Below, one piece after another: positions 3,761-34,024 of a stretch of DNA of 64,000 nucleotides. This stretch comes from Candidatus Brennerbacteria bacterium (GTDB lineage Bacteria > Patescibacteriota > Minisyncoccia > UBA6257 > GWB1-50-10). Positions within the stretch are counted from its first letter, which is position 1. The number at the start of each line of letters is the position of its first letter. The DNA is taken from positions 9,553 through 73,552 of the forward strand of contig JAZDNP010000008.1 of NCBI GenBank assembly GCA_043799565.1, read 5' to 3'. The notes below the pieces were generated by a model that was not told the DNA's origin, made no database searches, and worked only from the letters and a program-made list of their open reading frames with translations. The position numbers were made by a program, and so were the translations under genes.

Positions 3761-3946
3761 TTACCAAGATGCCTTTTTCACTCCAGGAATTTCCCCTTTG
3801 CTCGCGAGCTCGCGGAAGCAGATGCGGCAAAGATTGAAATCGCGCATATACCCGCGTCCTCGCCCGCACCGAAAACAGCGACGTACCACGCGTGTGGAAT
3901 ACTTCGGTTTTTTCTTTGCTCGTGCGATGACTGATGTCTTTGCCAT
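3761..3946 (-). CDS. rpsN: 30S ribosomal protein S14 type Z (zinc-binding)
   Basis: 61 aa with CFRCGR...CRIC (CxxC-x12-CxxC) typical of short S14 type Z; position between rplE and rpsH. Confidence 0.9.
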
Positions 3947-3960
3947 GGGTGAGTGTTAAT

Positions 3961-4488
3961 TTAACTCTTTGCGCCTACCTTTTTCAACGGCACGCCGATG
4001 GACTCGTAGAACGCGAACGCGCGCTCACGATCCCTCAGGCGAGGAACCGCCGTAATCTGGAGCCCGAACGATACCTTGGACTTTTCCGGATTGATTTCGG
4101 GAAACACATATTGTTCGCGAAGACCGATGTTCAAATTCCCATGGGTGTCCACGTTGTTTCTATCCAAACCGCGGAAGTCCTTCACACGCGGGAGTACGAT
4201 GCGAATGACCTTCGTCAAGAATTCGCGCATACGCGTACCGCGAAGCGTAATTTGTAGTCCCACCACGTCGCCCTCGCGCGTCTTAAAGCTTGCGACCGCT
4301 TTCTTTGCAGAACGGGGCGCCGCTTTCTGTCCGGTGATGGTCGCGAGTTCTTCCACGATTGCGGGAAGCACTTTTTCCTCGAATTGCGTCATGCTGCGCG
4401 CGCGACCCACCCCGACGTTCACGACGATTTTTGCGAGATCATTGTCCTTGCGAAATGTTTTGGTCATAAGTTTAAATAGTGCTTCCAC
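3961..4488 (-). CDS. rplE: 50S ribosomal protein L5
   Basis: 175 aa L5; conserved position after rplX. Confidence 0.9.
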   Translation of the reverse strand: MEALFKLMTKTFRKDNDLAKIVVNVGVGRARSMTQFEEKVLPAIVEELATITGQKAAPRSAKKAVASFKTREGDVVGLQITLRGTRMREFLTKVIRIVLPRVKDFRGLDRNNVDTHGNLNIGLREQYVFPEINPEKSKVSFGLQITAVPRLRDRERAFAFYESIGVPLKKVGAKS

Positions 4489-5588: not shown

Positions 5589-6002
5589 CTAATTTTTCAT
5601 GACGAAGCGGGTGCCGACCGGCAATTTGAACCCCGCACGTTTCAGCGCCGCGCGTGCGACCTCTTCCTTCACGCCGTCCACTTCAAAAAGCATGCGGCCG
5701 GGCTTCACGGGGAACACGTAGTGGTCCACGTCTCCCTTACCGCCTCCCAAGGTGACCTCCGGCGGAAGTTTTGTAATCGGCTTGTCGGGGAATATACGAA
5801 TCCACATCTTTCCTTCCTTTGCGAGTTGGTGACTGATGGCTTTGCGTGCCGCCTCTATCTGGTTTGACGTCACCCATGATGCCGAGGTCGCCTGGAGCCC
5901 ATAGCGCCCATACCCAAGCGTAACGCCGCGCGTTTCCACCAAGCGGCGGCGCGAGCGTCCTTTCTGCTGTTTACGAAACTTTTGTTTCTTAGGTTGCAAC
6001 AT
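5589..6002 (-). CDS. rplP: 50S ribosomal protein L16
   Basis: 137 aa (MLQPKKQKFRKQQKGR...) canonical L16 N-terminus. Confidence 0.93.
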   Translation of the reverse strand: MLQPKKQKFRKQQKGRSRRRLVETRGVTLGYGRYGLQATSASWVTSNQIEAARKAISHQLAKEGKMWIRIFPDKPITKLPPEVTLGGGKGDVDHYVFPVKPGRMLFEVDGVKEEVARAALKRAGFKLPVGTRFVMKN

Positions 6003-6012
6003 AATTCAAATA

Positions 6013-6705
6013 TTATCGCGTGCGCGACTGCGACTCATCCTTCTTCTCGAAAATATCGCCTTTGTAAATCCACACCTTCACGCCGACCGTGCCGTAGGTG
6101 TTGAACGACGTTGCTTCACCATAATCCACATTCGCACGGAGCGTTTGGAGCGGCATGCGTCCCTTCGCGAGCCAGTCGTTCCGTGAGATTTCTGCGCCGT
6201 TCAAACGGCCCGAAAGCCGGACTTTCGCGCCCAATACCTCGCGATTTTGCATGAGAAGCTCGAGCGTGCGCTTCATGGCGCGGCGGTACGGCAACCGCTT
6301 CTCAATATCGAACGCCATCTGCTGTGCGGTCACCGCGGCCGACACCTCCGAGCGTTTTAGCTCCTCAATGTTCAAATTGACCACGACCGGTCCTGCGATT
6401 TTCGCGGCAAGGCGATATTTCTTTATTTCCTGCACCAATCCATTTCGAAGGTCGTCTATCCCCTTCCCTCCGCGCCCGATGATAAGACCGGGGCGGCCGG
6501 CACGGATGGCAACACGAAGCGCGTCCGACGTCCGCTCAATCTCAATGCCCGCAATGCCCGCTTGGAGCACTTTGCTTCGGAGATATTCTCGGATGCGGAA
6601 ATCCTCCTCAAGGAAGTACCGGAGGCTCTTTTTGAAGAACCAGCGGTTCTGCCACGGAAGTGTGATGCCGATACGAAATGCGTTTGGTTTTACTTTTTGT
6701 CCCAT
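6013..6705 (-). CDS. rpsC: 30S ribosomal protein S3
   Basis: 230 aa; KH domain (GRGGKGID) and S3 C-domain. Confidence 0.93.
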   Translation of the reverse strand: MGQKVKPNAFRIGITLPWQNRWFFKKSLRYFLEEDFRIREYLRSKVLQAGIAGIEIERTSDALRVAIRAGRPGLIIGRGGKGIDDLRNGLVQEIKKYRLAAKIAGPVVVNLNIEELKRSEVSAAVTAQQMAFDIEKRLPYRRAMKRTLELLMQNREVLGAKVRLSGRLNGAEISRNDWLAKGRMPLQTLRANVDYGEATSFNTYGTVGVKVWIYKGDIFEKKDESQSRTR

Positions 6706-6710
6706 AGTTT

Positions 6711-7223
6711 TTATACCGCTTTCCTGCGGAAGAAGCGCTGTGCAAAACCTTTCTTTTCCACCTCCTTCTTCTCCTCACGGGCGTGGGTCTCTTCGTGCGC
6801 TTCAGGTTTCGGTTTCCTTTTTTTCTTCTCCTCCGTCTGTTTCTTCACGGGTTTCCGCACGGTGAAGCGCGAAGCTTTCGGCGTCGCGAGCGCTTCAAGA
6901 ATGATGGAAACATGACTTGTCTTCCGCTCGATAGGGCTCATGGCGCCGCGCGCGCGGGGCATCCAGCGCGTTGATTTTGGACCCTGGTCCACCCGTATCT
7001 CCTTTATGAAAAGTGCGTCCGCTTCTTTCTTCATCACCTGCTTTGCATTCGCGGTTGCGGAACGGAGCAGTTTCAAAAGTGGAGTTGCGGCGCGGCGGGG
7101 CAAAAGCAAAAGCTGTGCTTCCGCTTCGGTGACCGGAAGTCCGCGAATAACATCCACCACCGCACGCGTCTTTCGGGGCGCGATGTGAAGATAACGAAGT
7201 TGTGCTTTTGCTTGGGGTTCCAT
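6711..7223 (-). CDS. rplV: 50S ribosomal protein L22 with Lys/Glu-rich C-terminal extension
   Basis: L22 core in first ~115 aa; ~55-aa KKQTEEKKKRKPKPEAHEE... tail. Confidence 0.9.
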   Translation of the reverse strand: MEPQAKAQLRYLHIAPRKTRAVVDVIRGLPVTEAEAQLLLLPRRAATPLLKLLRSATANAKQVMKKEADALFIKEIRVDQGPKSTRWMPRARGAMSPIERKTSHVSIILEALATPKASRFTVRKPVKKQTEEKKKRKPKPEAHEETHAREEKKEVEKKGFAQRFFRRKAV

Positions 7224-7232
7224 AGTTCGTGA

Positions 7233-7568
7233 CTATTTTTTCGCGGGTGCCGCGGTGGGACCTGCCGCCGGTTTTGCCGTCGCTGCAGTGGACGCTTCAA
7301 GCTCGCGCTGCATTTTACCGCCGTGCTTCGTAAATTTGCGTGTCGGTGAAAATTCTCCCAAACGGTGGCCTACCATGTCCTCGGAAGCGGAAACAGAAAT
7401 GAAGTCCTTACCGTTGTGCACCTGGAACGTGAAACCAACCATTTCCGGCGCAATCTGAGAATCCCGCGACCATGTTTTCACGGGTGCGGCATCGTTCGGG
7501 TTTTTCCCGGCGATTTTCTCCAGAAGTTTGGGGTCCGTCCAAGGACCTTTGCGAAGTGGGCGTGTCAT
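7233..7568 (-). CDS. rpsS: 30S ribosomal protein S19 with Ala/Pro-rich C-terminal tail
   Basis: S19 core (KGPW...HNGKDFISV...GHRLGEF) plus AATAKPAAGPTAAPAKK tail. Confidence 0.92.
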   Translation of the reverse strand: MTRPLRKGPWTDPKLLEKIAGKNPNDAAPVKTWSRDSQIAPEMVGFTFQVHNGKDFISVSASEDMVGHRLGEFSPTRKFTKHGGKMQRELEASTAATAKPAAGPTAAPAKK

Positions 7569-7569
7569 A

Positions 7570-8397
7570 TTATTTAGTGCGGCGTTTTACGATAAGCGCG
7601 TTGGACCATTTCTTTTTGTTACGGGTCTTCCGGCCACCCGTGATATTACCCCATTTATCCTTCGGACGCTTGGTACCACGCTGGGTGCTCCCTTCACCAC
7701 CTCCGTATTTGTGGTCACGGGGGTTCATCGCCTTTGCGCGCGTGGTGGGGCGGATGCCGAGCCAACGGGAACGGCCCGCTTTGCCGATAACCACGAGCGA
7801 ATGCTCGGGATTGGAAACCTGGCCTACCGACGCATATCCGTTCCAAAAAACCTTACGGACCTCTCCGGACGACATCTTAAGATGAGTGTAACCGTCCTCG
7901 TTCGCAAGCACCTGGAGCGACGTACCCGCGCTTCGCGCAATGGAGCCGCCGCGGCCGGGAAAAATCTCCACGTTGTGCACGAACGTTCCCACGGGAACAT
8001 TTTTCAGTTGCAAACGATTTCCCGTCTTCAAAGGCGCTTCGGGCGCGGTAACAATCTCGTCCTTCACCTTCAGACCCTCGGGAGCAATGATATAGCGCCG
8101 CTCGCCATCTTTATAGATGACACGGGCGATGAACGCCGTGCGGTAGGGGTCATATTCTAGATGCTCCACGCGCGCGGGAATGTTCAACTTCTCCATCTTA
8201 AAGTCAACGGTGCGGTAAAGCTTTTTGTTGCCGCCGCCCTGATGGCGCATGGTGATGCGGCCATGGTGGTTGCGACCCGCGTGGGATTTCAGCCGTTTGG
8301 TAAGCGATTTCACGGGTTCGGAAGCGGTGAGACCGCGATAGTCCGTGCCCTGCATGTGGCGCCGCGAAGACGTGGTGGGTTTATAAATCTTAATCAT
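7570..8397 (-). CDS. rplB: 50S ribosomal protein L2
   Basis: 275 aa; L2 signature GRNHHGRITMRHQGGG and C-terminal basic tail. Confidence 0.95.
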   Translation of the reverse strand: MIKIYKPTTSSRRHMQGTDYRGLTASEPVKSLTKRLKSHAGRNHHGRITMRHQGGGNKKLYRTVDFKMEKLNIPARVEHLEYDPYRTAFIARVIYKDGERRYIIAPEGLKVKDEIVTAPEAPLKTGNRLQLKNVPVGTFVHNVEIFPGRGGSIARSAGTSLQVLANEDGYTHLKMSSGEVRKVFWNGYASVGQVSNPEHSLVVIGKAGRSRWLGIRPTTRAKAMNPRDHKYGGGEGSTQRGTKRPKDKWGNITGGRKTRNKKKWSNALIVKRRTK

Positions 8398-8399
8398 GG

Positions 8400-8786
8400 C
8401 TATTTAATATCTATCTTTGCTCCCGAGACGAGCGTGACGTGCGCTTTCTTTCCCACCTCTCCTTCGTGCCACCGGCCGCGAAAAAAACGGAACGCATCGT
8501 GATTGCGCACAATATTCACTCTTTTTACCTTCACTTTATAGCGGCGCTCCACTTCTTCCTTCACGAGCGTTTTATTTGCATCGTCCCGCACCAAAAACAC
8601 ATAGGTTCCACCCTGCTCCAGTCGGCTCGCTTTTTCGCTCGCGTGAGGAGCAATAAGCACTCGGCGGGCACTCGTAGGATGCAGAATCTTCGGCTCCACG
8701 GACGCTGAAACCGCTGCCGCTTCCGCCGGTTTTTTCTCCGCTACTTTTTTCGTTTTCTTTGAAAATATTCCCATAGGTTTATCCAA
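8400..8786 (-). CDS. rplW: 50S ribosomal protein L23 with N-terminal extension
   Basis: C-terminal ~90 aa are L23-like; ~35-aa K/A-rich N-extension; 8-bp overlap with rplD. Confidence 0.85.
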   Translation of the reverse strand: MDKPMGIFSKKTKKVAEKKPAEAAAVSASVEPKILHPTSARRVLIAPHASEKASRLEQGGTYVFLVRDDANKTLVKEEVERRYKVKVKRVNIVRNHDAFRFFRGRWHEGEVGKKAHVTLVSGAKIDIK

Positions 8787-22081: not shown

Positions 22082-22987
22082 TTATCGTTCGACAAAAGTC
22101 CGAATGGCTCCGCTCTCCACACGTATGGTAATGGTGCCATCCCTGTCGGTGCGATACACGCGGGCACCTACCGTTTCAAGCCGCGCGAGCGTTTCGCGCG
22201 TCGGGTGACCATAAGAATTCTTACCAACACCAATCGCCGCGAGCGTCGGCCTTACGGCGAAGAGAAACTCCGCCGCGGACGAGAATTTAGAACCGTGATG
22301 CGCAATTTTTAGCACATCAAACGGCTCGGTAATTTTCTTTGCAACTATACGTTCTACATTCGCACCGATATCACCGGTAAAAAGAAACCTTGCTCCACTG
22401 GACTCAAACGCCAGCACCATACTCGTATCGTTCTTCTCTCTCGCAGAAACGAGCGTATCGTCCGGAGAGATTATGGAGAACACCTGCCCGCCATAACGGA
22501 TACGATCTCCCGCACGAAGGGTAGTGCGGCGGATTTTGTACTCCGCCAATTTATTCACCAGCACCTCATACGCCTCAACTTCTTTTGTGACTCCGGCGTC
22601 AATGAACATGCCGACCTCATACCTCCCGAGAAGCTCTATGAGTCCTCCGTAGTGATCAACTTCCGGATGTGTGAGTACCACGAGTTCTATCGTACGATCG
22701 TACGGAAGCATAATTTCGCCAAGCTCCGCGAGAAGCCGCCCGTTCGGCGGACCTCCATCAATGAGCATCTGCACACCTTCCCCCAATTCAACAAGCGAGG
22801 CATCGCCCTGACCCACGTCAAGAAATAAAACCGCAACACTTCCCGCTTCTTTTTCCACGCTTCCCAACAACGCAAAAAGAAATGCGTTCAAAACAAAAAA
22901 CACCGCGAGAACACCAAATATGCGCGGTTTAGATCTTTCGAGAAATGAAGCGAGTATTTGCATACCAAATGAATACGAGAAGCACAC
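22082..22987 (-). CDS. comEC: ComEC C-terminal part: membrane-anchored metallo-beta-lactamase domain
   Basis: THPEVDHYGG (HxHxDH) MBL signature, HHGS; N-terminal TM helix; the listed start (22987) is a GTG alternative start; the first canonical ATG (MQILASF...) is at 22963, inside the 3' end of the upstream ComEC ORF. Confidence 0.8.
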   Translation of the reverse strand: MCFSYSFGMQILASFLERSKPRIFGVLAVFFVLNAFLFALLGSVEKEAGSVAVLFLDVGQGDASLVELGEGVQMLIDGGPPNGRLLAELGEIMLPYDRTIELVVLTHPEVDHYGGLIELLGRYEVGMFIDAGVTKEVEAYEVLVNKLAEYKIRRTTLRAGDRIRYGGQVFSIISPDDTLVSAREKNDTSMVLAFESSGARFLFTGDIGANVERIVAKKITEPFDVLKIAHHGSKFSSAAEFLFAVRPTLAAIGVGKNSYGHPTRETLARLETVGARVYRTDRDGTITIRVESGAIRTFVER

Positions 22988-25688: not shown

Positions 25689-26267
25689 ATGCTTTCCTAT
25701 AACGAATTGAAGGTCGGTACGATCTTCACCAAAAACGAGGACCCGAATCCGTACCGGGTTATAGAGTACGCCTTCATCCGCATGCAACAGCGGAAACCGG
25801 TGACTCAGTTGAAGATAAAGAATCTCCTCACCGGGAAGGTGCTGGACTATGCGGCACACCAAAACGAGAGCTTTTATGAGGTGGAAATAGAGAATACGCC
25901 GGTAAACTTCATCTACCACAGCAAAGGAGAATACTGGTTTCATGAGAAAGGAAAACCCGCTGCGCGATTCAAATTGCCCGACGAACTGGTGGGAGATGCC
26001 GGCCAATTTCTCAAGGTGAACACGGAGGTAAAAGCATTCAAGTTTAGAGACGCCATTATTTCAATTGAGCTTCCCGTGAAAATGGAACTCAAAGTGACCG
26101 AGGCACCGCCCGCCATCAAAGGCAACACCGCACAAGGCGGCACGAAGACCGTGACGTTGGAGACCGGAGGCAAAGTGAACGTTCCCCTCTTCATCAACGA
26201 AGGCGACATCGTGCGCATCAATACGGAAACTGGCGATTACGCGGAGCGCGTAGAGAAAGGGAAATAG
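25689..26267 (+). CDS. efp: Elongation factor P
   Basis: 192 aa, three-domain EF-P (KIKNLLTG, GDxAQGGTK, VPLFINEGD). Confidence 0.92.
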   Translation: MLSYNELKVGTIFTKNEDPNPYRVIEYAFIRMQQRKPVTQLKIKNLLTGKVLDYAAHQNESFYEVEIENTPVNFIYHSKGEYWFHEKGKPAARFKLPDELVGDAGQFLKVNTEVKAFKFRDAIISIELPVKMELKVTEAPPAIKGNTAQGGTKTVTLETGGKVNVPLFINEGDIVRINTETGDYAERVEKGK

Positions 26268-26269
26268 AA

Positions 26270-26304
26270 GATAAAAAAGAGGACGATTGGATTTCCAATC
26301 GTCC
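26270..26304 (-). terminator. Rho-independent terminator of the RT gene (bidirectional context, convergent with efp)
   Basis: Perfect 11-bp stem GGACGATTGGA-TT-TCCAATCGTCC immediately after the RT stop, followed on the minus strand by UCUUUUUUAUCU. Confidence 0.75.
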
Positions 26305-26307
26305 CCG

Positions 26308-27426
26308 TTACTGTGTCTCCGAACAAAGCCTTGCCCACGGCCGCGCAACCTGTGGCGGCAACGTGGGGCCATAGACTCCGTGGAGATAATCCACGTACCC
26401 TTTCGCCCTTGCACGAAGGTTCTCGTCAAAGATGGCGCGGTGAATGATAGCGCGTATCTTCCGTATCTCCTTCTTCGGCACGCTCACCGAATCACCCGGC
26501 AAACGTTTTGATCCGTCCCGCGACCCGATATGCACCAGTCGAAGCCCCGTCACAAGCGGTGCAATCTGCCTGCGGTCGAAGAATAGTGTTTTATCCCTAT
26601 TGAACCGGAACACTCCTTCTTCTTCCACTATGGCCATGAACGCTTCAACGTCGGAAACCGCGATGGGGGTCGCCGAGGAAATGGTAAAGTCGTCGGCGTA
26701 CACGGATACGCGCACCGCGATACCCTTCTCCTCAAACCATTGCTGTGCCATTTGCGGGACTCCGTAGTGTGAAAGCACGAGGTCCAAAAGGAATGGTGAT
26801 GTCGGCGCGCCCTGTGGTAATGCCCCCCGATACGTCACGAGCGGTATCAATGTATCAAGAAATTCCTCAAGCACCTGATGGTGTTTCACGTTCCGTAACC
26901 ACTTGGGCGGCGGACCGGGCAGAAGAAGTTTCCGAAACCATTTTGCCTTTCTCGTGGAAAACAGGGGTGGGCGCGGATAATCACGTCTCCCCTCTTTACT
27001 CACATCGGCGGCAAGGAGCCGGCACGTGAGTACTTCCGTGGCCACAATCTGTGCGAGCACTTTCCGCACTACAACTCCGGTCACTGAAGGGAACGCGTCC
27101 TTGAGGTCCAGCCGTACCACGTACCGCGCATCGGCGCGCGCATGAAGGCGCGCGTTCGTCACTGAAGAGCGCCCCGGCAGAAATCCGTGGATCTGTGGCG
27201 CGAGCCATCCTTGCTGCCATATCCGATAGAGGAAATACTGCAGAAACTTCCGCTGGAACCTTTTCACGATAGGGTACGGAACCGCGATAGACCGCACGCC
27301 GCCACGCGGTTTCCTTTTCTTGTGGACCTCGTAATGGTCCTGGAACCGGATCGCGTGCTCGAGTTTGGTCTCGGGCCACCCCAACACGCCCGCGAGCAAT
27401 TGCGTGCCGTTGAATAGATAATGCAC
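26308..27426 (-). CDS. Retron-type reverse transcriptase
   Basis: RT1 KRKPRGGVRSIAVP; RT2 HGFLPGRSSVTNARLHA (NAxxH); RT3 LDLKDAFPSV; RT4 LPQGAPTSP; RT5 YADD; VTG triplet after RT7; 372 aa, no maturase/endonuclease domain; GGGAGGTG SD. Confidence 0.85.
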   Translation of the reverse strand: MHYLFNGTQLLAGVLGWPETKLEHAIRFQDHYEVHKKRKPRGGVRSIAVPYPIVKRFQRKFLQYFLYRIWQQGWLAPQIHGFLPGRSSVTNARLHARADARYVVRLDLKDAFPSVTGVVVRKVLAQIVATEVLTCRLLAADVSKEGRRDYPRPPLFSTRKAKWFRKLLLPGPPPKWLRNVKHHQVLEEFLDTLIPLVTYRGALPQGAPTSPFLLDLVLSHYGVPQMAQQWFEEKGIAVRVSVYADDFTISSATPIAVSDVEAFMAIVEEEGVFRFNRDKTLFFDRRQIAPLVTGLRLVHIGSRDGSKRLPGDSVSVPKKEIRKIRAIIHRAIFDENLRARAKGYVDYLHGVYGPTLPPQVARPWARLCSETQ

Positions 27427-27970
27427 GTTACTTCACCTCCCTTCTCCGTATTTTGATAAAGAACGGGCGTGGAGCGACCACTACAGGATCGCTCCACATG
27501 AGTGTGCTTGTCTCAGAGACCGTCAGGAAAGTTGAGATGGGTTGACTTCCGCCCGTTCGAGTTCCCTGCGATGCGGAGTGACTGCTCCGCAAGGTGCGAA
27601 TGGTCGAATGTCGGAGTTGATGGCGGCGAACCGTCCGGATGTTGCGCCGCTGATTCCCAACCGTTCCTCCGGCAGCCAGGTACTGACCACCGTTCCTCAA
27701 AAGAAAAGTACAACAGGATAAAACTCAAGCGACACCTTGCTCACAACCGAAAAGCCGAGGTTGTCAGCTTGCCCACCGTAAGCGTAGGGGTGAGGGTGGG
27801 GTGCGGTCAAGTTTTATCGGTGCAGGTCGTGAAACCGCGGGCGTGAGCTCGCGGATGAACGACCGCGATTGACTGGTGCGCCCGGTGGGCGCACCTTGCC
27901 GACACAACCGCCATGGTGCCGCTCGCGGAAAGCCCCACGCGTGAGCGTGGGGTTCGCCGCGCGGCCGGTT
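27427..27970 (-). ncRNA. Candidate retron non-coding RNA region (msr-msd-like): ORF-free, hairpin-rich leader of the RT gene
   Basis: 544 nt with no plausible ORF on the RT strand; multiple perfect hairpins (27934-27953, 27876-27896, 27479-27507), a 9-bp long-range inverted repeat CGAACGGGCG...CGCCCGTTC enclosing two hairpins just upstream of the RT SD, and ~18-nt direct repeats; exact RNA boundaries unknown. Confidence 0.45.
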
Positions 27971-29917
27971 TTATTCCTTCAGTTTCCCCAGGGCATCCCG
28001 GAGCGCGCTCTGCAAACCCTTAATGTCCGGCTCGCCATCGTCCCACGAGGGTTTTTTGTTTTCCTTCGCCTCCGTGGGCGTAAGTTCACTGAGACGCAGC
28101 TTGTGCTCTTCCTCTTCGCTCGCGACGGATGGACTCGTGTTAACATCCCGAAGAATAGACGCACGGCGTACCGGACTGGCCGGCGCTGTTTCGCGAGGAG
28201 GCGTGGGTGAACGGGCGTGTTCCGGTCTCGGACCCAAAGAAGAAACGGGACGTGGCCTTTCTTCACGCGGAGCCGCAGGTGGGCGCGGCCCTACCTCTGC
28301 TGACGGGCGCGGCACCGGAGCACCACTGCGTCCACCGAACTCAATGCCGAGTTTGGCAAGATCCGCCATATTACCCGCCTCTTCACGCGCAGATGGCGCG
28401 CGTGGTACCCGTACTGGCTGCAACTCGCCCGCTTTTATTTTTTTCAAACAATCCTGACAGTATACAGGCCGTCCCGGCAAAGGCTTGAAAGGCACCGTGG
28501 TCACTTTATTGCACGCAGAGCACGTTACTTCAAATTTCCCCTCCACTCCTCCCCCTGACTGAGAAGTAAATCCCCCCTCTCCCGAAGCCGGAGGGCCACC
28601 ACTACTTTCGCCCATAATGCCGCCTGCCCAGCGTGAGATTTCTTCCTCCACTGCCTGGCGGGACTTCGCATAGCGCCTGCGTGATTCCGAAATCACCATC
28701 TCCACGGTACTTTCGGAGCTTTCCACCTTGAACGGCGGGAGGGTATGTGCGGAAAACGGGCGCGAGGTTACGCCGTCCACCATAAGTTTCAGATAGATGG
28801 TGTAGTTCGGCAGATTCACAATATCTTCCGGCAGAAGCTCCGGAGTGAATTCCTGTTCTAAAAATTCAGCGTCTGCCGCACCCACGCGGAACACCACCAT
28901 AGTCCCCACGTTGCCGAACACCGCATCGCGCACCTTCGTAGATACGTCCGTCACAAGCTGGCCGATATACTGGTGTGCAAGGATGAGGTCTAGGCGGTAT
29001 TTCCGCGATTCTGAAAGAATGCCCGCAAATGAATCGGTCGCAAAGTTTTGGAACTCGTCTACGTAGAGGTAAAAGTCCACACGCTCTTCCTCGGGAATAC
29101 GCACGCGCTCCATCGCGGCGAGTTGAATCTTCGTAATGAGCATCGCACCTAAGAGTGCCGAGTTGTCCTCTCCAATACGCCCCTTAGATACGTTCACAAG
29201 AAATATCTTCCCGTCGTTCATTATCTTGAAAATATCCAACGTGCTTTGCGGCTGGCCCACCACATTCCTAATCATCGCGGTGGAAAGGAATTGACCCACT
29301 TTGTTCTGAATAGGTGCGATGGCTTCGTTCCTAAACTGATCGCGCCATTCTTCAAATTCGTTCAACCAAAACGAGCGCACCACCGGGTCTTTTACGTTCG
29401 CAAGCATCTGCTGGCGATATTGCTTGTCCACTAAAATGCGGCTGATACCGAGAAGCGTGGAACCGGGCGTATCTAAAAGCGCCAGCACCGCGTTGTTCAG
29501 AATGTATTCCATGCGCGCGGACCATGTGCCCGCCCATATCTTCGTGAAAATACCCATGAGCCCCGAAGCCACGAGGTGTTTGTATTTCGGGTCTGGCAAT
29601 TCCAGCACGTTGAACCCCATCGGGAACTCGCTGTCCGCGGGATTAAAATACACCACGTCCTTCAGGCGCTCTTTCGGTATCTTTTTCAAAATCGACTCCA
29701 CCAACTCACCATGCGGGTCCACTACGCATACCCCCTCACCATTCGCAATGTCCTGGATGATGAGGTTGTGGAGCATGGCGCTCTTCCCCGTCCCGGTCTT
29801 CCCGATGACGTACATGTGCTGCCTCCGGTCGGTGCGCTTGATGCCGAAAAGCTGATTTTTGTTCCGGAAATCTATGCGTCCGAAGTAGGCAACGTTCTTT
29901 TCAGGAGCGTCTTCCAT
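27971..29917 (-). CDS. VirD4/TraD-like (FtsK-HerA superfamily) P-loop ATPase with C-terminal zinc ribbon and Pro/Arg-rich tail
   Basis: Walker A GKTGTGKS, Walker B-like VDEFQNF, TraG-D_C-like region; CSACNK-x17-CQDC ribbon; low-complexity P/R-rich C-terminal ~150 aa; paralog at 62862..end of window. Confidence 0.8.
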   Translation of the reverse strand: MEDAPEKNVAYFGRIDFRNKNQLFGIKRTDRRQHMYVIGKTGTGKSAMLHNLIIQDIANGEGVCVVDPHGELVESILKKIPKERLKDVVYFNPADSEFPMGFNVLELPDPKYKHLVASGLMGIFTKIWAGTWSARMEYILNNAVLALLDTPGSTLLGISRILVDKQYRQQMLANVKDPVVRSFWLNEFEEWRDQFRNEAIAPIQNKVGQFLSTAMIRNVVGQPQSTLDIFKIMNDGKIFLVNVSKGRIGEDNSALLGAMLITKIQLAAMERVRIPEEERVDFYLYVDEFQNFATDSFAGILSESRKYRLDLILAHQYIGQLVTDVSTKVRDAVFGNVGTMVVFRVGAADAEFLEQEFTPELLPEDIVNLPNYTIYLKLMVDGVTSRPFSAHTLPPFKVESSESTVEMVISESRRRYAKSRQAVEEEISRWAGGIMGESSGGPPASGEGGFTSQSGGGVEGKFEVTCSACNKVTTVPFKPLPGRPVYCQDCLKKIKAGELQPVRVPRAPSAREEAGNMADLAKLGIEFGGRSGAPVPRPSAEVGPRPPAAPREERPRPVSSLGPRPEHARSPTPPRETAPASPVRRASILRDVNTSPSVASEEEEHKLRLSELTPTEAKENKKPSWDDGEPDIKGLQSALRDALGKLKE

Positions 29918-29939: not shown

Positions 29940-30449
29940 TTATCTTTTGATTTCTACGAGGAGCGAAGGAGTACCACGCTTCGGTTTCCCGCTCGCATAC
30001 ACGTCCACCGTGTCGCCAAAATAGCGCATTGCTTCCCCTACCGTCCGTGCGGGGGGCTGGCCTTCAACGTTCGCGCTCGGCGCGACAAGCGGACCAGTCT
30101 TTTTAAGAAGGATGCATAGTGTTGTGGATTTCGGCACGCGGAACGCGAGCGTCTTCGTCCCCCGGTGGAGATACTGGAACTTCAGTGACGGGCACGGGAA
30201 AATAATACTTATCGGCCCGGGCCATACTTGATTCAAAAATGCTCTCACCCGCGCATCCGGACGAATGCCGAATTTTACAATGTCACGCGGCGAGGAAATA
30301 AGAACAATGAACGGTTTCTTCGGACTCCGCTTGCGCAGACGGTAGATACGCTCCACCGTCTTCCTTTTCACCGCGGAACCCACGACGCCCAATATCGTGT
30401 CGGTCGGCATGACCGCAACCCCGCCGTTGTTCAAAATATGTTCAATCAT
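29940..30449 (-). CDS. tsaC: L-threonylcarbamoyladenylate synthase (TsaC/YrdC family)
   Basis: YrdC fold motifs VAVMPTDTILGV and SANVEGQPP; 169 aa. Confidence 0.8.
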   Translation of the reverse strand: MIEHILNNGGVAVMPTDTILGVVGSAVKRKTVERIYRLRKRSPKKPFIVLISSPRDIVKFGIRPDARVRAFLNQVWPGPISIIFPCPSLKFQYLHRGTKTLAFRVPKSTTLCILLKKTGPLVAPSANVEGQPPARTVGEAMRYFGDTVDVYASGKPKRGTPSLLVEIKR

Positions 30450-32191
30450 TACACCAATACGGCGCGGATGCGGCGGACGCCGGCGCCAACGGCCTCTTCT
30501 TTGGATATCTTAATGCGTCCAATCTCCCCTGTGTGGGTAACGTGCGGACCGCCGCAAAACTCCTTACTCCAAGCACCTTCAAGTGAGTGTCCCACGTAAT
30601 ACACTTTCACGCGGTCGGGATATTTCTCCTTGAAGAAATACATCGCGCCGGTTTTCTCCGCTTCTTCCTTCGCCATTTCTTGAAACTGCACCGGAAGATC
30701 TTCCTTTATCTTTTCATTCACCAATTCCTCGACTTTCCACAGCTCTTCCTTCTCCACCTTGCGTGAGAACGAGAAGTCAAAACGGGTGCGTTCGGGTGTG
30801 ATGTCCGACCCGCGCTGTCCTACCTCCGACCCCAGCACTTCGCGAAGCGCGCGCTGGAGCAAGTGTGTTGCGGTGTGGAGGCGCGTTACCTTTTTCAGCT
30901 CCTCTTCGTCCCCCGCTTTCAATTCTCCGGTGTTCAAAATAAGACCGTGGCCTCCGAATTTCTTCACCGCACCCGCTCGGGAAATCTCCTGGTGTTTTTC
31001 AAACTCTTTATCAAAATCCTCACGCGCAAGTTTTGACGCCTTTTCGCCGCCAAGCTCTTTCAAAACCTCATAGGGTAATCCGTAACTTTCAAAAAGCGTG
31101 AATGCTCCCTTCGCATCCAATAAATTCACCTTCGCAAGCTCCTTCAAGCCCACCGCAAGCGTCTTCTCAAACCGCGCACGCTCCGCATTCCATTCTTCCA
31201 ATACCACTTCGGCATTCAGATCCGGGTAGAACTTTTCGTAATGCTCGTGCACCTCGGCAAAAAGATGCGCGGGGTCTACGGGATTTCCAGCAAGGTGAAG
31301 ATGGGTCACGAGGCGGCGCATGAGGCGCCGGAGCACGTACCCCGCTTCCTTATTGGAAGGACGCACACCGTCTGAGATAAGGAACGCGATGCCGCGAACA
31401 TGGTCAGCGAGGATGCGCCGCGTCCGCTCGGACAAATTCTCCGGCAAAAGCTTCATAAGCGGCGAGAAAAGATCCGTTTCAAAAATGGTCGGCACACCCT
31501 GCGACACCATCGTAAGACGCTCCAAACCCATACCTGTATCCACGCCCGGTGTTTTTAATGGAACGAGTTTCTTGTTTTTATCGCAGTAGAACTCGTTGAA
31601 AACGATATTCCACACCTCCAAACTCTTTCCTTCCGCGCTTTTAACATAAATCTCGGTCGTAGGACCACATGGACCTTCCGAACCGGTGGGGCCCCAAAAC
31701 ACGTCTGTGCCTTCGCCTCGAATGTCCTTCACCCCAAGCTTTTCCCAGAACGCGCGGGAATCGTCGTCGCGCGGCACGCCTTTCCGCCAATCACCATCGG
31801 GGACCTTCGCGGGGTCAAAGACCGAAACATAATCTATCGGGAGCCTCATCACCTTCGTGATAAATTCGTACCCGTACTCAATCGCTTCTTTTTTGAAATA
31901 ACCTCCGAACGAGAAATTTCCGAGCATCTCAAAGAACGTGAGGTGTGATTCGTTTCCCACTTCGTCAATATCCGAGGTTCGGAATGACTTCTGAACCGAT
32001 ACGGTGCTCTTCTCGCCAAAATCTTTCATCGCATCAAGCTCCCCCGTGTAATACCGCTTGAATTGCTGCATTCCGGCGGTGGTAAGAAGCACCGAAGGGT
32101 CGTCGGGCACAAGCGATGAGGAGCGCACCACCGCGTGGCCGCGCGCTTTGAAGAATTCAAGGAATTTCGTCCGTATTTCGCTTCCCGACAT
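30449..32191 (-). CDS. alaS: Alanine--tRNA ligase, short form lacking the C-terminal C-Ala domain
   Basis: FKARGH, LLTTAGMQQFK, HLTFFEMLGNFSFGGYFK catalytic motifs; editing domain HTATHLLQ and CGGPHV; ends right after the editing domain (580 aa). Confidence 0.88.
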   Translation of the reverse strand: MSGSEIRTKFLEFFKARGHAVVRSSSLVPDDPSVLLTTAGMQQFKRYYTGELDAMKDFGEKSTVSVQKSFRTSDIDEVGNESHLTFFEMLGNFSFGGYFKKEAIEYGYEFITKVMRLPIDYVSVFDPAKVPDGDWRKGVPRDDDSRAFWEKLGVKDIRGEGTDVFWGPTGSEGPCGPTTEIYVKSAEGKSLEVWNIVFNEFYCDKNKKLVPLKTPGVDTGMGLERLTMVSQGVPTIFETDLFSPLMKLLPENLSERTRRILADHVRGIAFLISDGVRPSNKEAGYVLRRLMRRLVTHLHLAGNPVDPAHLFAEVHEHYEKFYPDLNAEVVLEEWNAERARFEKTLAVGLKELAKVNLLDAKGAFTLFESYGLPYEVLKELGGEKASKLAREDFDKEFEKHQEISRAGAVKKFGGHGLILNTGELKAGDEEELKKVTRLHTATHLLQRALREVLGSEVGQRGSDITPERTRFDFSFSRKVEKEELWKVEELVNEKIKEDLPVQFQEMAKEEAEKTGAMYFFKEKYPDRVKVYYVGHSLEGAWSKEFCGGPHVTHTGEIGRIKISKEEAVGAGVRRIRAVLV

Positions 32192-32794: not shown

Positions 32795-34024
32795 TTAATA
32801 TCCTTCCAGCTTCTTCACCTTGGAATGGCTCCGTATCTTTTCCAATGCCTTCGCCTCAATCTGCCGGATACGCTCACGCGTAACACCGAATATCTTTCCC
32901 ACCTCTTCCAGCGTGTGCGGAATGTTGTCCTCAAGTCCGAAACGCATAGAGAGAATCTTTCGCTCGCGCTCGGTAAGGTCCGCAAGAATTTCCTTTATCT
33001 GGTCGCGAAGGAGCGCATGGCTTGCAAGCTGGTCCGGCGTCATACCGCGCTCGTCGGGAATGAAGTCGGAGAGCACCGAGTCGTCATCGTCATCGCCGAT
33101 GGGTGTTTCCAGGGAAATAACTTCCTGTGAGATTTTCTGGATGTAGTGAACCTTTTCCACGTCAACGCCGAGCTCCGCGGCGATTTCTTCCGGTAGGGGC
33201 TCGCGTCCGAGTTCCTGCATCAGGCGCCGCTTCGTCTGTGTGTACTTCGTGATGGTCTCCACCATATGGACCGGGATGCGGATGGTGCGCGAGTAGTCGG
33301 CGAGTGCACGCGTGACCGCCTGGCGAATCCACCACGTCGCGTATGTGGAAAACTTGAAGCCTTTCCGGTAGTCGAATTTATCCACGGCGCGGGAAAGCCC
33401 GATGTTCCCTTCCTGCACAAGGTCAAGGATGGAAAGATGGGGGCTGCGGTTTACATAGCGCTTTGCGATAGAGACCACGAGCCGTAAGTTGGCCTGGATA
33501 AGTCTTTGCCGCGCCGTTTCGTCACCCGCTTCAATGCGCTTCGCGAGCTCCTTTTCTTCTTTTGATGTAAGGAGAGCGGTCTTCCCGATTTCTTTCAGAT
33601 ACATCTGTACTGCGTCCGGAAGCGCGTCTTCAAAATCCGTCGCTTTACGAAGTTCTTCCAAACTCACCTCGTCTCGGTCCTTTTTCCCCACAAGTCCTGC
33701 GGGCTCCTGCACCTTGATACCCTCCCTGTCCAGCCGGTCATAGACCTGCTCCAAAAATGCGAGGTGGCGCTCGATATTCGGAAAATAGTTCAAAACCTCT
33801 GCGTCAGTCACAAAACCGCGCCCGCGCCCGCGCCGCACTAGGTCGTTCAAATGCGTCTCATATTCCTTCAATACCTCGGGGGGTATTTTCCTGTGCTTTA
33901 CAGCCTTCGCCTTCCCGTGTGAACGGGATGCCTTCTTCTTCGCCGCCTTCTTCCGTGCAACTTTCCTTCCGTGTTTTGGTGCCGCGTGTTTCTTTGTTTT
34001 TTTCTGCTTCTTTTTCTTTTTCAT
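32795..34024 (-). CDS. rpoD: RNA polymerase sigma factor RpoD (sigma-70) with Lys-rich N-terminal tail
   Basis: Regions 1.2-4 present ([44 protein letters not shown], region 4 HTH); ~55-aa [11 protein letters not shown]... N-terminus. Confidence 0.92.

Follow-up and report, generated by a model that had tools for sequence, protein, structure and literature searches.

A putative stand-alone retron-type reverse transcriptase cassette with a new structured RNA family in Candidatus Brennerbacteria

The 64 000 nt stretch of DNA analysed here (the window; part of contig JAZDNP010000008.1) comes from a metagenome-assembled genome (MAG) of the Candidate Phyla Radiation (CPR; Patescibacteria). It includes a gene for a 372 aa reverse transcriptase (RT) that is 100% identical to an NCBI protein of 'Candidatus Brennerbacteria bacterium'. 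The RT gene (26308..27426, minus strand) has a GTG start preceded by the Shine-Dalgarno sequence GGAGG at 27440-27436, and a 544 nt intergenic region (27427-27970) separates it from the gene for a P-loop ATPase. An earlier note had flagged this hairpin-rich region as a candidate msr/msd, the non-coding RNA (ncRNA) of a retron. That proposal stands insofar as the region encodes a conserved, structured ncRNA whose ends pair and which directly precedes, on the same strand, the gene for a retron-type RT, while the details proposed for it do not. The functional unit is the RT-proximal ~320 nt (27777-27455, minus strand). Positions 27810-26273 (minus strand) are probably a stand-alone, effector-less retron-type msr/msd-RT cassette with a new RNA family, and the cassette appears to be self-contained, with one promoter, a structured ncRNA of ~320 nt, a retron-type RT and its own terminator.

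The window was compared with the DNA around homologs of the RT (27-64% RT identity; loci are identified here by L numbers), found in MAGs labelled Brennerbacteria, Jorgensenbacteria, Kerfeldbacteria and Saccharibacteria. A structured RNA lies upstream of the RT gene, on the same strand, in all 18 loci with usable upstream DNA. The order of elements is the same throughout: a -35 TTGACN and a -10 TAnnnT, a 5' arm, a conserved 5' domain, a variable middle, a GC-rich hairpin, a 3' arm and a U-rich tract, with a Shine-Dalgarno sequence and the RT start ~25-40 nt beyond the tract. Single-sequence minimum free energy (MFE) folds, each done independently, recovered the stem formed by the two arms (the closing stem), the conserved hairpin and the terminal hairpin. 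The unconstrained MFE fold of 27455-27777 has the same architecture, including the closing stem and a second long-range helix, P1b. Relative to shuffled sequences, fold z-scores were -4.8 for 27427-27970, -3.3 for 27455-27777 and -4.6 for 27811-27970. The divergent RNAs were aligned poorly by MAFFT, which also mis-aligned two composite hairpins. Long-range helices were examined by pairing the 5' segment of each locus with the 3' segment of the same locus or of another one and comparing the duplex energies (20,000 permutations for the closing stem). Four helices have covariation support, namely the closing stem, P1b, the hairpin P4 and the GC-rich terminal hairpin. The open reading frames (ORFs) of the region, including a 90 aa ORF correctly placed by that note at 27428..27700, are not conserved as protein, and on both strands they gave only weak matches, located over the conserved RNA hairpin.

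The RNA would be transcribed from a promoter at 27781..27810 (minus strand) that was recognized from the sequence and its homologs, with the -35 TTGACC (27810-27805) and the -10 TACGCT (27786-27781) separated by an 18 nt spacer. TTGACN followed 16-18 nt on by TAnnnT is found at the equivalent position in nearly all homologous loci. A generic promoter scan returned no match in the region because the -10 fits the consensus at just 3/6 positions. Downstream of the promoter, the closing stem is formed by an a1-like 5' arm, (GG)TGGGC (27771..27777, minus strand; core TGGGC, 27775-27771), and an a2-like 3' arm, GCCCG(TT) (27462..27468, minus strand; core 27468-27464), a pairing seen in both the duplex test and the MFE fold. 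Across 17 loci, cognate arms pair at -11.3 kcal/mol and non-cognate arms at -7.4 kcal/mol (p < 5e-5; 0/20,000 permutations), and there is compensatory change between the window (TGGGC/GCCCG) and L161 (TAGGC/GCCTG). Further clear compensatory cases are AATCCTAAG/CTTAGGATT (L082), CCTGGTG/CACCAGG (L166) and GTGGGGTC/GACCCCAC (L087). Just 3' of a1 lies AAGC (27767..27770, minus strand), which also follows a1 in L161, L162 and L163, and its G27768 is the candidate priming (branching) G.

The helix P1b is formed by GGTGTcGCTTG (27726..27736, minus strand) and CAAGC-ACAC (27502..27510, minus strand), and was likewise recovered by the duplex test and the MFE fold. It links the sequence following a1 with the 16 nt that precede the terminal hairpin, and it encloses the conserved 5' domain. 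Family-wide, cognate P1b strands pair at -11.2 kcal/mol and non-cognate strands at -8.9 kcal/mol (p < 5e-5); the strands are GCAAACTT/AAGTTTGC in L169 and CAGGCTT/AAGCCTG in L172. Within the 5' part of the RNA is P4 (27671..27691, minus strand), a 9 bp hairpin, GGTGGTCAG-TAC-CTGGCTGCC, with the invariant tip CAG-NAN-CUG, which is a candidate RT-recognition hairpin. In an alignment of 18 loci, gapless in 17, 98.8% of P4 cells are paired and three pairs show double-sided changes, a result equalled by 0/500 shuffles. A covariance model of P4 finds a single site in the window (27661-27699). It matches only loci of this RT clade, including L089, on which it was not trained, and gave 0 matches in about 150 other retron-RT loci. 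P4 is followed on its 3' side by a purine-rich strand, GGAGGAACGG (27661..27670, minus strand), represented in most loci by a GGAGGA, GGTAGA or GAAG motif.

The remaining hairpins are less widely shared. Between a1 and P1b, P2 (ACAACC-N10-GGTTGT; 27743..27764, minus strand) appears when the window and L161 are folded by MFE and is specific to a subgroup. RNAalifold, given the four closest sequences, left it out of the consensus, and in other subgroups its place is taken by a different small hairpin. P5 (GCGGCG-N16-CGCCGC; 27622..27650, minus strand) is conserved in the eight closest loci and was found by RNAalifold. It is followed by a variable region (27511..27621, minus strand) that ranges from about 20 to about 130 nt among homologs and is also diverse in sequence. 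In the window, this region is a long imperfect hairpin capped by GCGGAG-CAGTCA-CTCCGC, which the earlier note had placed about 4 nt away from its actual position (27590-27573), and it holds GAACGGGCG (27558-27550). The same note's GTCTC-TGA-GAGAC is actually GTCTC-T-GAGAC (27520-27510), a 4 bp stem at best. Its GTGGAGCGA-N11-TCGCTCCAC is the terminal GC-rich hairpin (27469..27497, minus strand), which abuts a2 and is the candidate msd (template) hairpin. Terminal hairpins of 8-13 bp (-11 to -25 kcal/mol) with unrelated sequences lie 35-57 nt before the RT start in 15/17 loci. In a composite alignment 8/8 pairs of this hairpin have double-sided changes, the alignment having been fitted to each hairpin. 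Directly after a2 is the U-rich tract TTCTTT (27458..27463, minus strand), and GTTCTTT or TTTTT occupies this position in nearly all loci.

Three other pairings were considered and rejected. The earlier note had cast a 9 bp inverted repeat, GAACGGGCG (27558-27550) and CGCCCGTTC (27469-27461), as a1/a2. The repeat exists and is perfect in the window (-16.9 kcal/mol), but it is specific to the window and missing even in the closest homolog, and family-wide the pairing is not conserved (-8.46 versus -8.49 kcal/mol, p = 0.51). Pairing of GGAGGAACGG with a2 and the U-tract has -12.7 kcal/mol in the window and was the RNAalifold choice for the four closest sequences, but p = 0.11 family-wide. Pairing of the post-P4 strand with the segment before the terminal hairpin, the RNAalifold result for L165-L167, has p = 0.23. 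The window RNA also contains GAACGG three times (27694-27689, 27665-27660 and 27558-27553), each copy complementary to CCGTTC in a2 and the U-tract (27466-27461). These mutually exclusive pairings are not conserved in the family and may be a lineage-specific switch or chance. The sequence GAGGAACGG, reported by the earlier note as occurring twice, does so as part of a 10 nt repeat at 27698-27689 and 27669-27660. Complementarity of the RNA to other sites in the window was limited to chance-level matches of ≤13 nt.

In a distant member of the family, L085 (~393-824), the RNA ends in a canonical intrinsic terminator, GGGGATTCC-ATCT-GGAATCCCC followed by T6, and the RT has a separate promoter, TTGACA-N17-TAATAT. 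The terminal hairpin of L085 is located outside the long-range stem. With this terminator for the RNA and this promoter for the RT, the RNA of L085 is a separate transcript and not merely a leader, and it can act in trans. This layout argues that the RNA is itself a functional molecule. By its covariation, its absence from Rfam and its exclusive association with this RT clade, the RNA represents a new ncRNA family, as judged from sequence comparison.

The RT matches Pfam RVT_1. In PADLOC its best 25 matches were all to retron RT models, of many types and with similar scores. The top model was RT_X (3e-33), but as RT_XIII, II-A, III-A and others scored nearly as high, we regard the RT_X match as generic. 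NAxxH (N91-A-R-L-H95), YADD (Y243-A-D-D246) and VTG (V292-T-G294) are all present, and 41 aligned homologs show little or no variation in them; NAxxH in region X and VTG in RT7 (region Y) are hallmarks of retron RTs (Mestre et al. 2020; PMC7736814). A profile search of the PDB returned the RTs of retrons Ec86, Ec67, Kva2, Ec83 and Ec78 at 7e-25 to 6e-15 and group II intron RTs at 1e-7, and no chain of a defence-associated RT (DRT) was among the 18 PDB sequences matching the profile at E ≤ 0.001. The AlphaFold2 (AF2) model of the RT has a predicted local distance difference test (pLDDT) score of 93.3. When this model was used to query Foldseek, the best 15 matches were all retron RTs (best E 3.9e-14), with GsI-IIC, DRT2 (1e-9), DRT9 (1e-8) and diversity-generating retroelement (DGR) RTs further down. 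The AF2 model contains no extra domain that could be a fused effector. The RT combines the motifs and fold of retron RTs with scores below the curated NCBIfam cut-offs, and the IHF-like/VHL-beta partner of type X is missing, the neighbours being a TrwB-like ATPase and efp. We therefore conclude that it belongs to a separate clade of retron-type RTs. The clade is restricted to CPR, and all of its named members are CPR. A profile search of 1.84 billion cluster representatives (50%-identity clusters) found 397 at E ≤ 1e-30, and among the matches listed roughly two dozen are full-length, single-stretch relatives below about 1e-90. Between conserved blocks, at residues ~125-190, the RT has a clade-specific insertion of ~60 aa with the conserved motif YPxxPLFSxKKVKWFRxLF. 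The insertion is not found in solved retron RTs, and part of it is modelled with low confidence by AF2 (pLDDT 63 around residues 141-150).

The fold of the RNA can be described as a three-way arrangement, in which a short a1/a2-like closing stem would have the terminal hairpin stacked on it and P1b would enclose the 5' domain. The 5' domain with P4 (27691-27671) is the likely RT-recognition element, equivalent to msr, and the likely template, the counterpart of msd, consists of the variable region together with the terminal hairpin beside a2. If the system works as retrons do, the RT would bind this RNA, prime from the 2'-OH of the G just 3' of a1 (candidate G27768) and then copy the RNA from next to a2, giving a small complementary DNA (cDNA).

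On the upstream side, also on the minus strand, the cassette follows genes for sigma-70 (32795-34024), an AlaX-like protein (30449-32191), Sua5/YciO (29940-30449) and the P-loop ATPase (27971-29917), the last a 648 aa TrwB/VirD4-like protein with a CxxC-x17-CxxC zinc finger. On the other side is efp (25689-26267, plus strand), convergent with the RT gene, and beyond it are genes for MnmA, ComEC and a metallo-beta-lactamase (MBL)-fold protein. The ATPase terminator marks one boundary of the cassette, and a bidirectional terminator shared with efp marks the other. The latter, an intrinsic terminator, GGACGATTGG-AAAT-CCAATCGTCC followed by T6 (26273..26304, minus strand), is conserved in L161, L162, L165 and L166. 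The structured RNA is conserved, with covariation, in loci that lack the ATPase (L167, L169, L171-L173, L081-L087 and L001); across the 20 loci compared, the ATPase adjoins the RT in the six closest relatives only. In a related CPR genome (L174 and L175), whose ATPase is 82% identical, the order sigma70-AlaX-ATPase-efp-MnmA-ComEC-MBL is kept, with Sua5 missing. At this 'empty site' (positions 6001-8507), 44 nt separate the ATPase gene from efp and neither the RT nor the RNA is present. As these loci are syntenic with the window yet lack both, the RNA and the RT have been gained or lost together, as one cassette.

The ATPase can be ruled out as a retron effector, as it is ubiquitous in CPR, adjacent to the RT in just six loci and present without the RT in L174 and L175. 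Its homologs make up at least 8000 clusters at 90% identity. All 8000 scored candidates have E ≤ 1e-20 and those with a named source are CPR, while the best 120 matches share at least 61% identity over most or all of their length. The gene is thus widespread and conserved in CPR; its product has a long, disordered, Pro/Arg-rich tail, and its proximity to ComEC in the window makes a role in DNA uptake conceivable. PADLOC matched two other neighbours to defence proteins, the MBL-fold protein beside ComEC (22082-22987, minus strand) to LmuA and RTasMBL and the sigma-70 factor to MzaA. As the housekeeping synteny is conserved in L174, these are probably fold-level cross-matches. Integration next to a tRNA gene is hinted at in L167, where a tRNA-Arg gene (5595-5667) ends 22 nt before the ncRNA promoter, and more loosely in L172, but the pattern is inconsistent across loci and was rejected as a general one. 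In L172, tRNA-Phe (4340-4411) is ~350 nt upstream, and in L173 tmRNA (transfer-messenger RNA)/SmpB (3780-4099) is ~900 nt upstream. Carriage by phage was rejected as IMG/VR holds no close relative, the best match being 26-29% identical. The GC content of the RT gene and the RNA is host-like.

The ATPase stop and the ncRNA promoter are separated by a 160 nt spacer (27811-27970, minus strand) that is 69% GC, compared with 54% for the whole window, and folds at -86.7 kcal/mol. In homologs the promoter is 3-30 nt after the ATPase stop, and the 160 nt spacer is thus window-specific. It has no counterpart in homologous loci and no repeat copies elsewhere in the window. An origin as a degenerate duplicate of the ncRNA or a genomic repeat was rejected, as the alignment score was at chance level and there are no other copies. 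The spacer contains two hairpins described in the earlier note, CCCCACGC-TCAC-GCGTGGGG, which is perfect and lies at 27952-27933 (1 nt from where the note had placed it), and GGTGCGCCC-ACC-GGGCGCACC at 27895-27875. The first of these, 18 nt past the ATPase stop and followed by CTTTCC, plausibly terminates the ATPase gene. Both hairpins, and one copy of a direct repeat of ~18 nt, had been taken as parts of the RNA, but they are upstream of the promoter, in the spacer that homologs lack. The direct repeat itself amounts to 13 nt at 85% plus 8 nt, and its local alignment score of 23 is in the range expected by chance (17.7 ± 2.2 for shuffled sequences, maximum 26).

Several observations fit poorly with a retron. 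With 4-5 Watson-Crick or GU pairs, and at most 7 when wobbles are included, the window's closing stem is shorter than those of validated retrons. The terminal hairpin, at 8-13 bp, is at the short end for an msd stem, and P1b is an extra enclosing helix outside the textbook msr/msd picture. A G is present 1-6 nt past a1 in all loci inspected, but is not strictly column-aligned, and none of these loci showed a consistent opposing G before a2. No Rfam family matches the ncRNA region of the window (E ≤ 10) or of eight homologous loci (E ≤ 1), the sole match in the window being Acido-Lenti-1, on the terminator hairpin, with 21.5 bits where the gathering score is 37. The curated cut-offs of the NCBIfam retron models are all higher than the scores of the RT. 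Finally, no effector is conserved across the 20 loci compared, in which the RT is the sole gene common to all, whereas an effector gene or partner accompanies about 75% of retrons.

Stand-alone msr-msd-RT cassettes are known from branches of RT clades 2 and 11, and the inner end of a1/a2 in retron ncRNAs carries two opposing Gs (Mestre et al. 2020; PMC7736814). Like the stand-alone retrons, the cassette described here has a retron-type RT, an upstream ncRNA on the same strand with paired ends, short hairpins on the 5' side, a stable hairpin by the 3' arm and no effector. It differs from them in host, as they are found mostly in Gammaproteobacteria (clade 2) and essentially in Actinobacteria (clade 11) and not in CPR. 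It also differs in its RNA, which has the conserved CAG-NAN-CUG hairpin and an extra long-range helix that encloses the 5' domain, closes with a very short stem and lacks an opposing-G pair. Its RT is set apart by the ~60 aa insertion and by scores below all curated retron family cut-offs. The conserved U-rich tail after a2 is a further departure from a textbook retron. Among solved structures, retron Ec86 (Eco1; PDB 7v9u and 7v9x) is the best match (profile 7e-25, fold 3.9e-14, TM 0.58/0.67) and shares the gene order ncRNA then RT. However, the RTs are only about 21% identical and the ncRNAs have no sequence or Rfam-level similarity. The partner of Ec86 is a nucleoside deoxyribosyltransferase-like effector. 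Type X provides the best-scoring retron RT profile, but is defined by an upstream IHF-like/VHL-beta protein (PMC7736814), and the window has no such membrane protein upstream. DRT2 (UG2) resembles the cassette in having two components, an RT and an upstream structured ncRNA, and no effector gene. Its RT is of a different lineage, as indicated by the fold comparison (1e-9, compared with 4e-14 for retrons), and there is no stop-free frame for a Neo-like ORF.

Three explanations other than a retron-type cassette were weighed. That the region is nothing more than the 3' untranslated region and terminator of the ATPase gene plus the RT promoter, with chance hairpins in GC-rich DNA, was an alternative allowed for in the earlier note. 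It is correct for the distal 160 nt (27811-27970), with a hairpin and CTTTCC near the ATPase stop in a segment missing from homologs, and the generic promoter scan without a match is in keeping with it. The proximal 320 nt, conserved with covariation at loci without the ATPase, refute it for 27455-27777, and for the region as a whole we consider it very improbable. Less easily dismissed, though still unlikely, is a role in cis, in which the RNA would be the leader of the RT mRNA and never undergo reverse transcription, serving as an autoregulatory RT-binding site or an attenuator, with the closing stem and U-rich tract as a leaky terminator or with the fold gating access to the Shine-Dalgarno sequence. 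The element does lie between the promoter and the RT start, most loci lack a canonical terminator, and the conserved tract TTCTTT comes right after the closing stem in nearly all loci. A terminator scan flags the terminal hairpin region, and in the window a2 and the U-tract have alternative partners, the two copies of GAGGAACGG and GAACGGGCG, as in a switch. However, none of those alternative pairings is conserved (p = 0.51, 0.11 and 0.23), in most loci 5-13 nt separate the U-tract from the local hairpin, whereas in intrinsic terminators the two adjoin, and the separate transcript in L085 indicates that the RNA can act in trans. Retron-type enzymes, of which this is one, also take their template and primer from the RNA beside them (PMC7736814).

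The third explanation is that the RT uses the RNA as template by a non-retron mechanism, which could be rolling-circle synthesis as in DRT2, the making of a homopolymer from the U-rich tract as in DRT9, or snap-back priming by the terminal hairpin. The cDNA, or a gene created by it, would then be the effector, which would explain the missing effector gene. A stand-alone RT and ncRNA with no conserved neighbour in 20 loci recall DRT2 and DRT9, whose RTs are detectable structural neighbours (1e-9 and 1e-8), and the conserved U-rich tract, the missing opposing-G motif and the insertion at RT residues ~125 to ~190 are compatible with such a mechanism. Retron RTs nevertheless fit better, both by sequence (7e-25, and no DRT chain) and by fold (4e-14 versus 1e-9), and the RT carries the retron motifs NAxxH and VTG. 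In the family, no frame runs uninterrupted from a1 to a2, and this speaks against an endless ORF of the Neo type; an open frame in the style of DRT2 was rejected, as in most loci each of the six frames contains stops. We judge this explanation improbable. A further reading is a two-component CPR retroelement, RNA and RT only, in which the cDNA or the ribonucleoprotein itself is the functional end product. It seems doubtful, though it merits more weight than the preceding three. It could serve defence with no protein effector involved, or could have a domesticated, non-defence role in minimal episymbiont genomes. The three-way junction with its enclosing helix, the U-rich tail and the missing opposing G suggest, for such an element, a priming and template geometry unlike that of classical retrons.

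At ~1.5 kb, the retron-type cassette is a potentially small scaffold for RT-DNA tools. As it has no conserved effector and is present or absent in syntenic genomes, it is also a compact system in which to test what the RT and RNA of a retron do alone. One passage of a review (PMC8632793) puts DGRs at about 80% of CPR RTs, and our literature search found no description of retrons in CPR bacteria. To the RTs of these organisms, the cassette adds a CPR-restricted clade of retron-type enzymes and, with it, a covariation-supported ncRNA family missing from Rfam.

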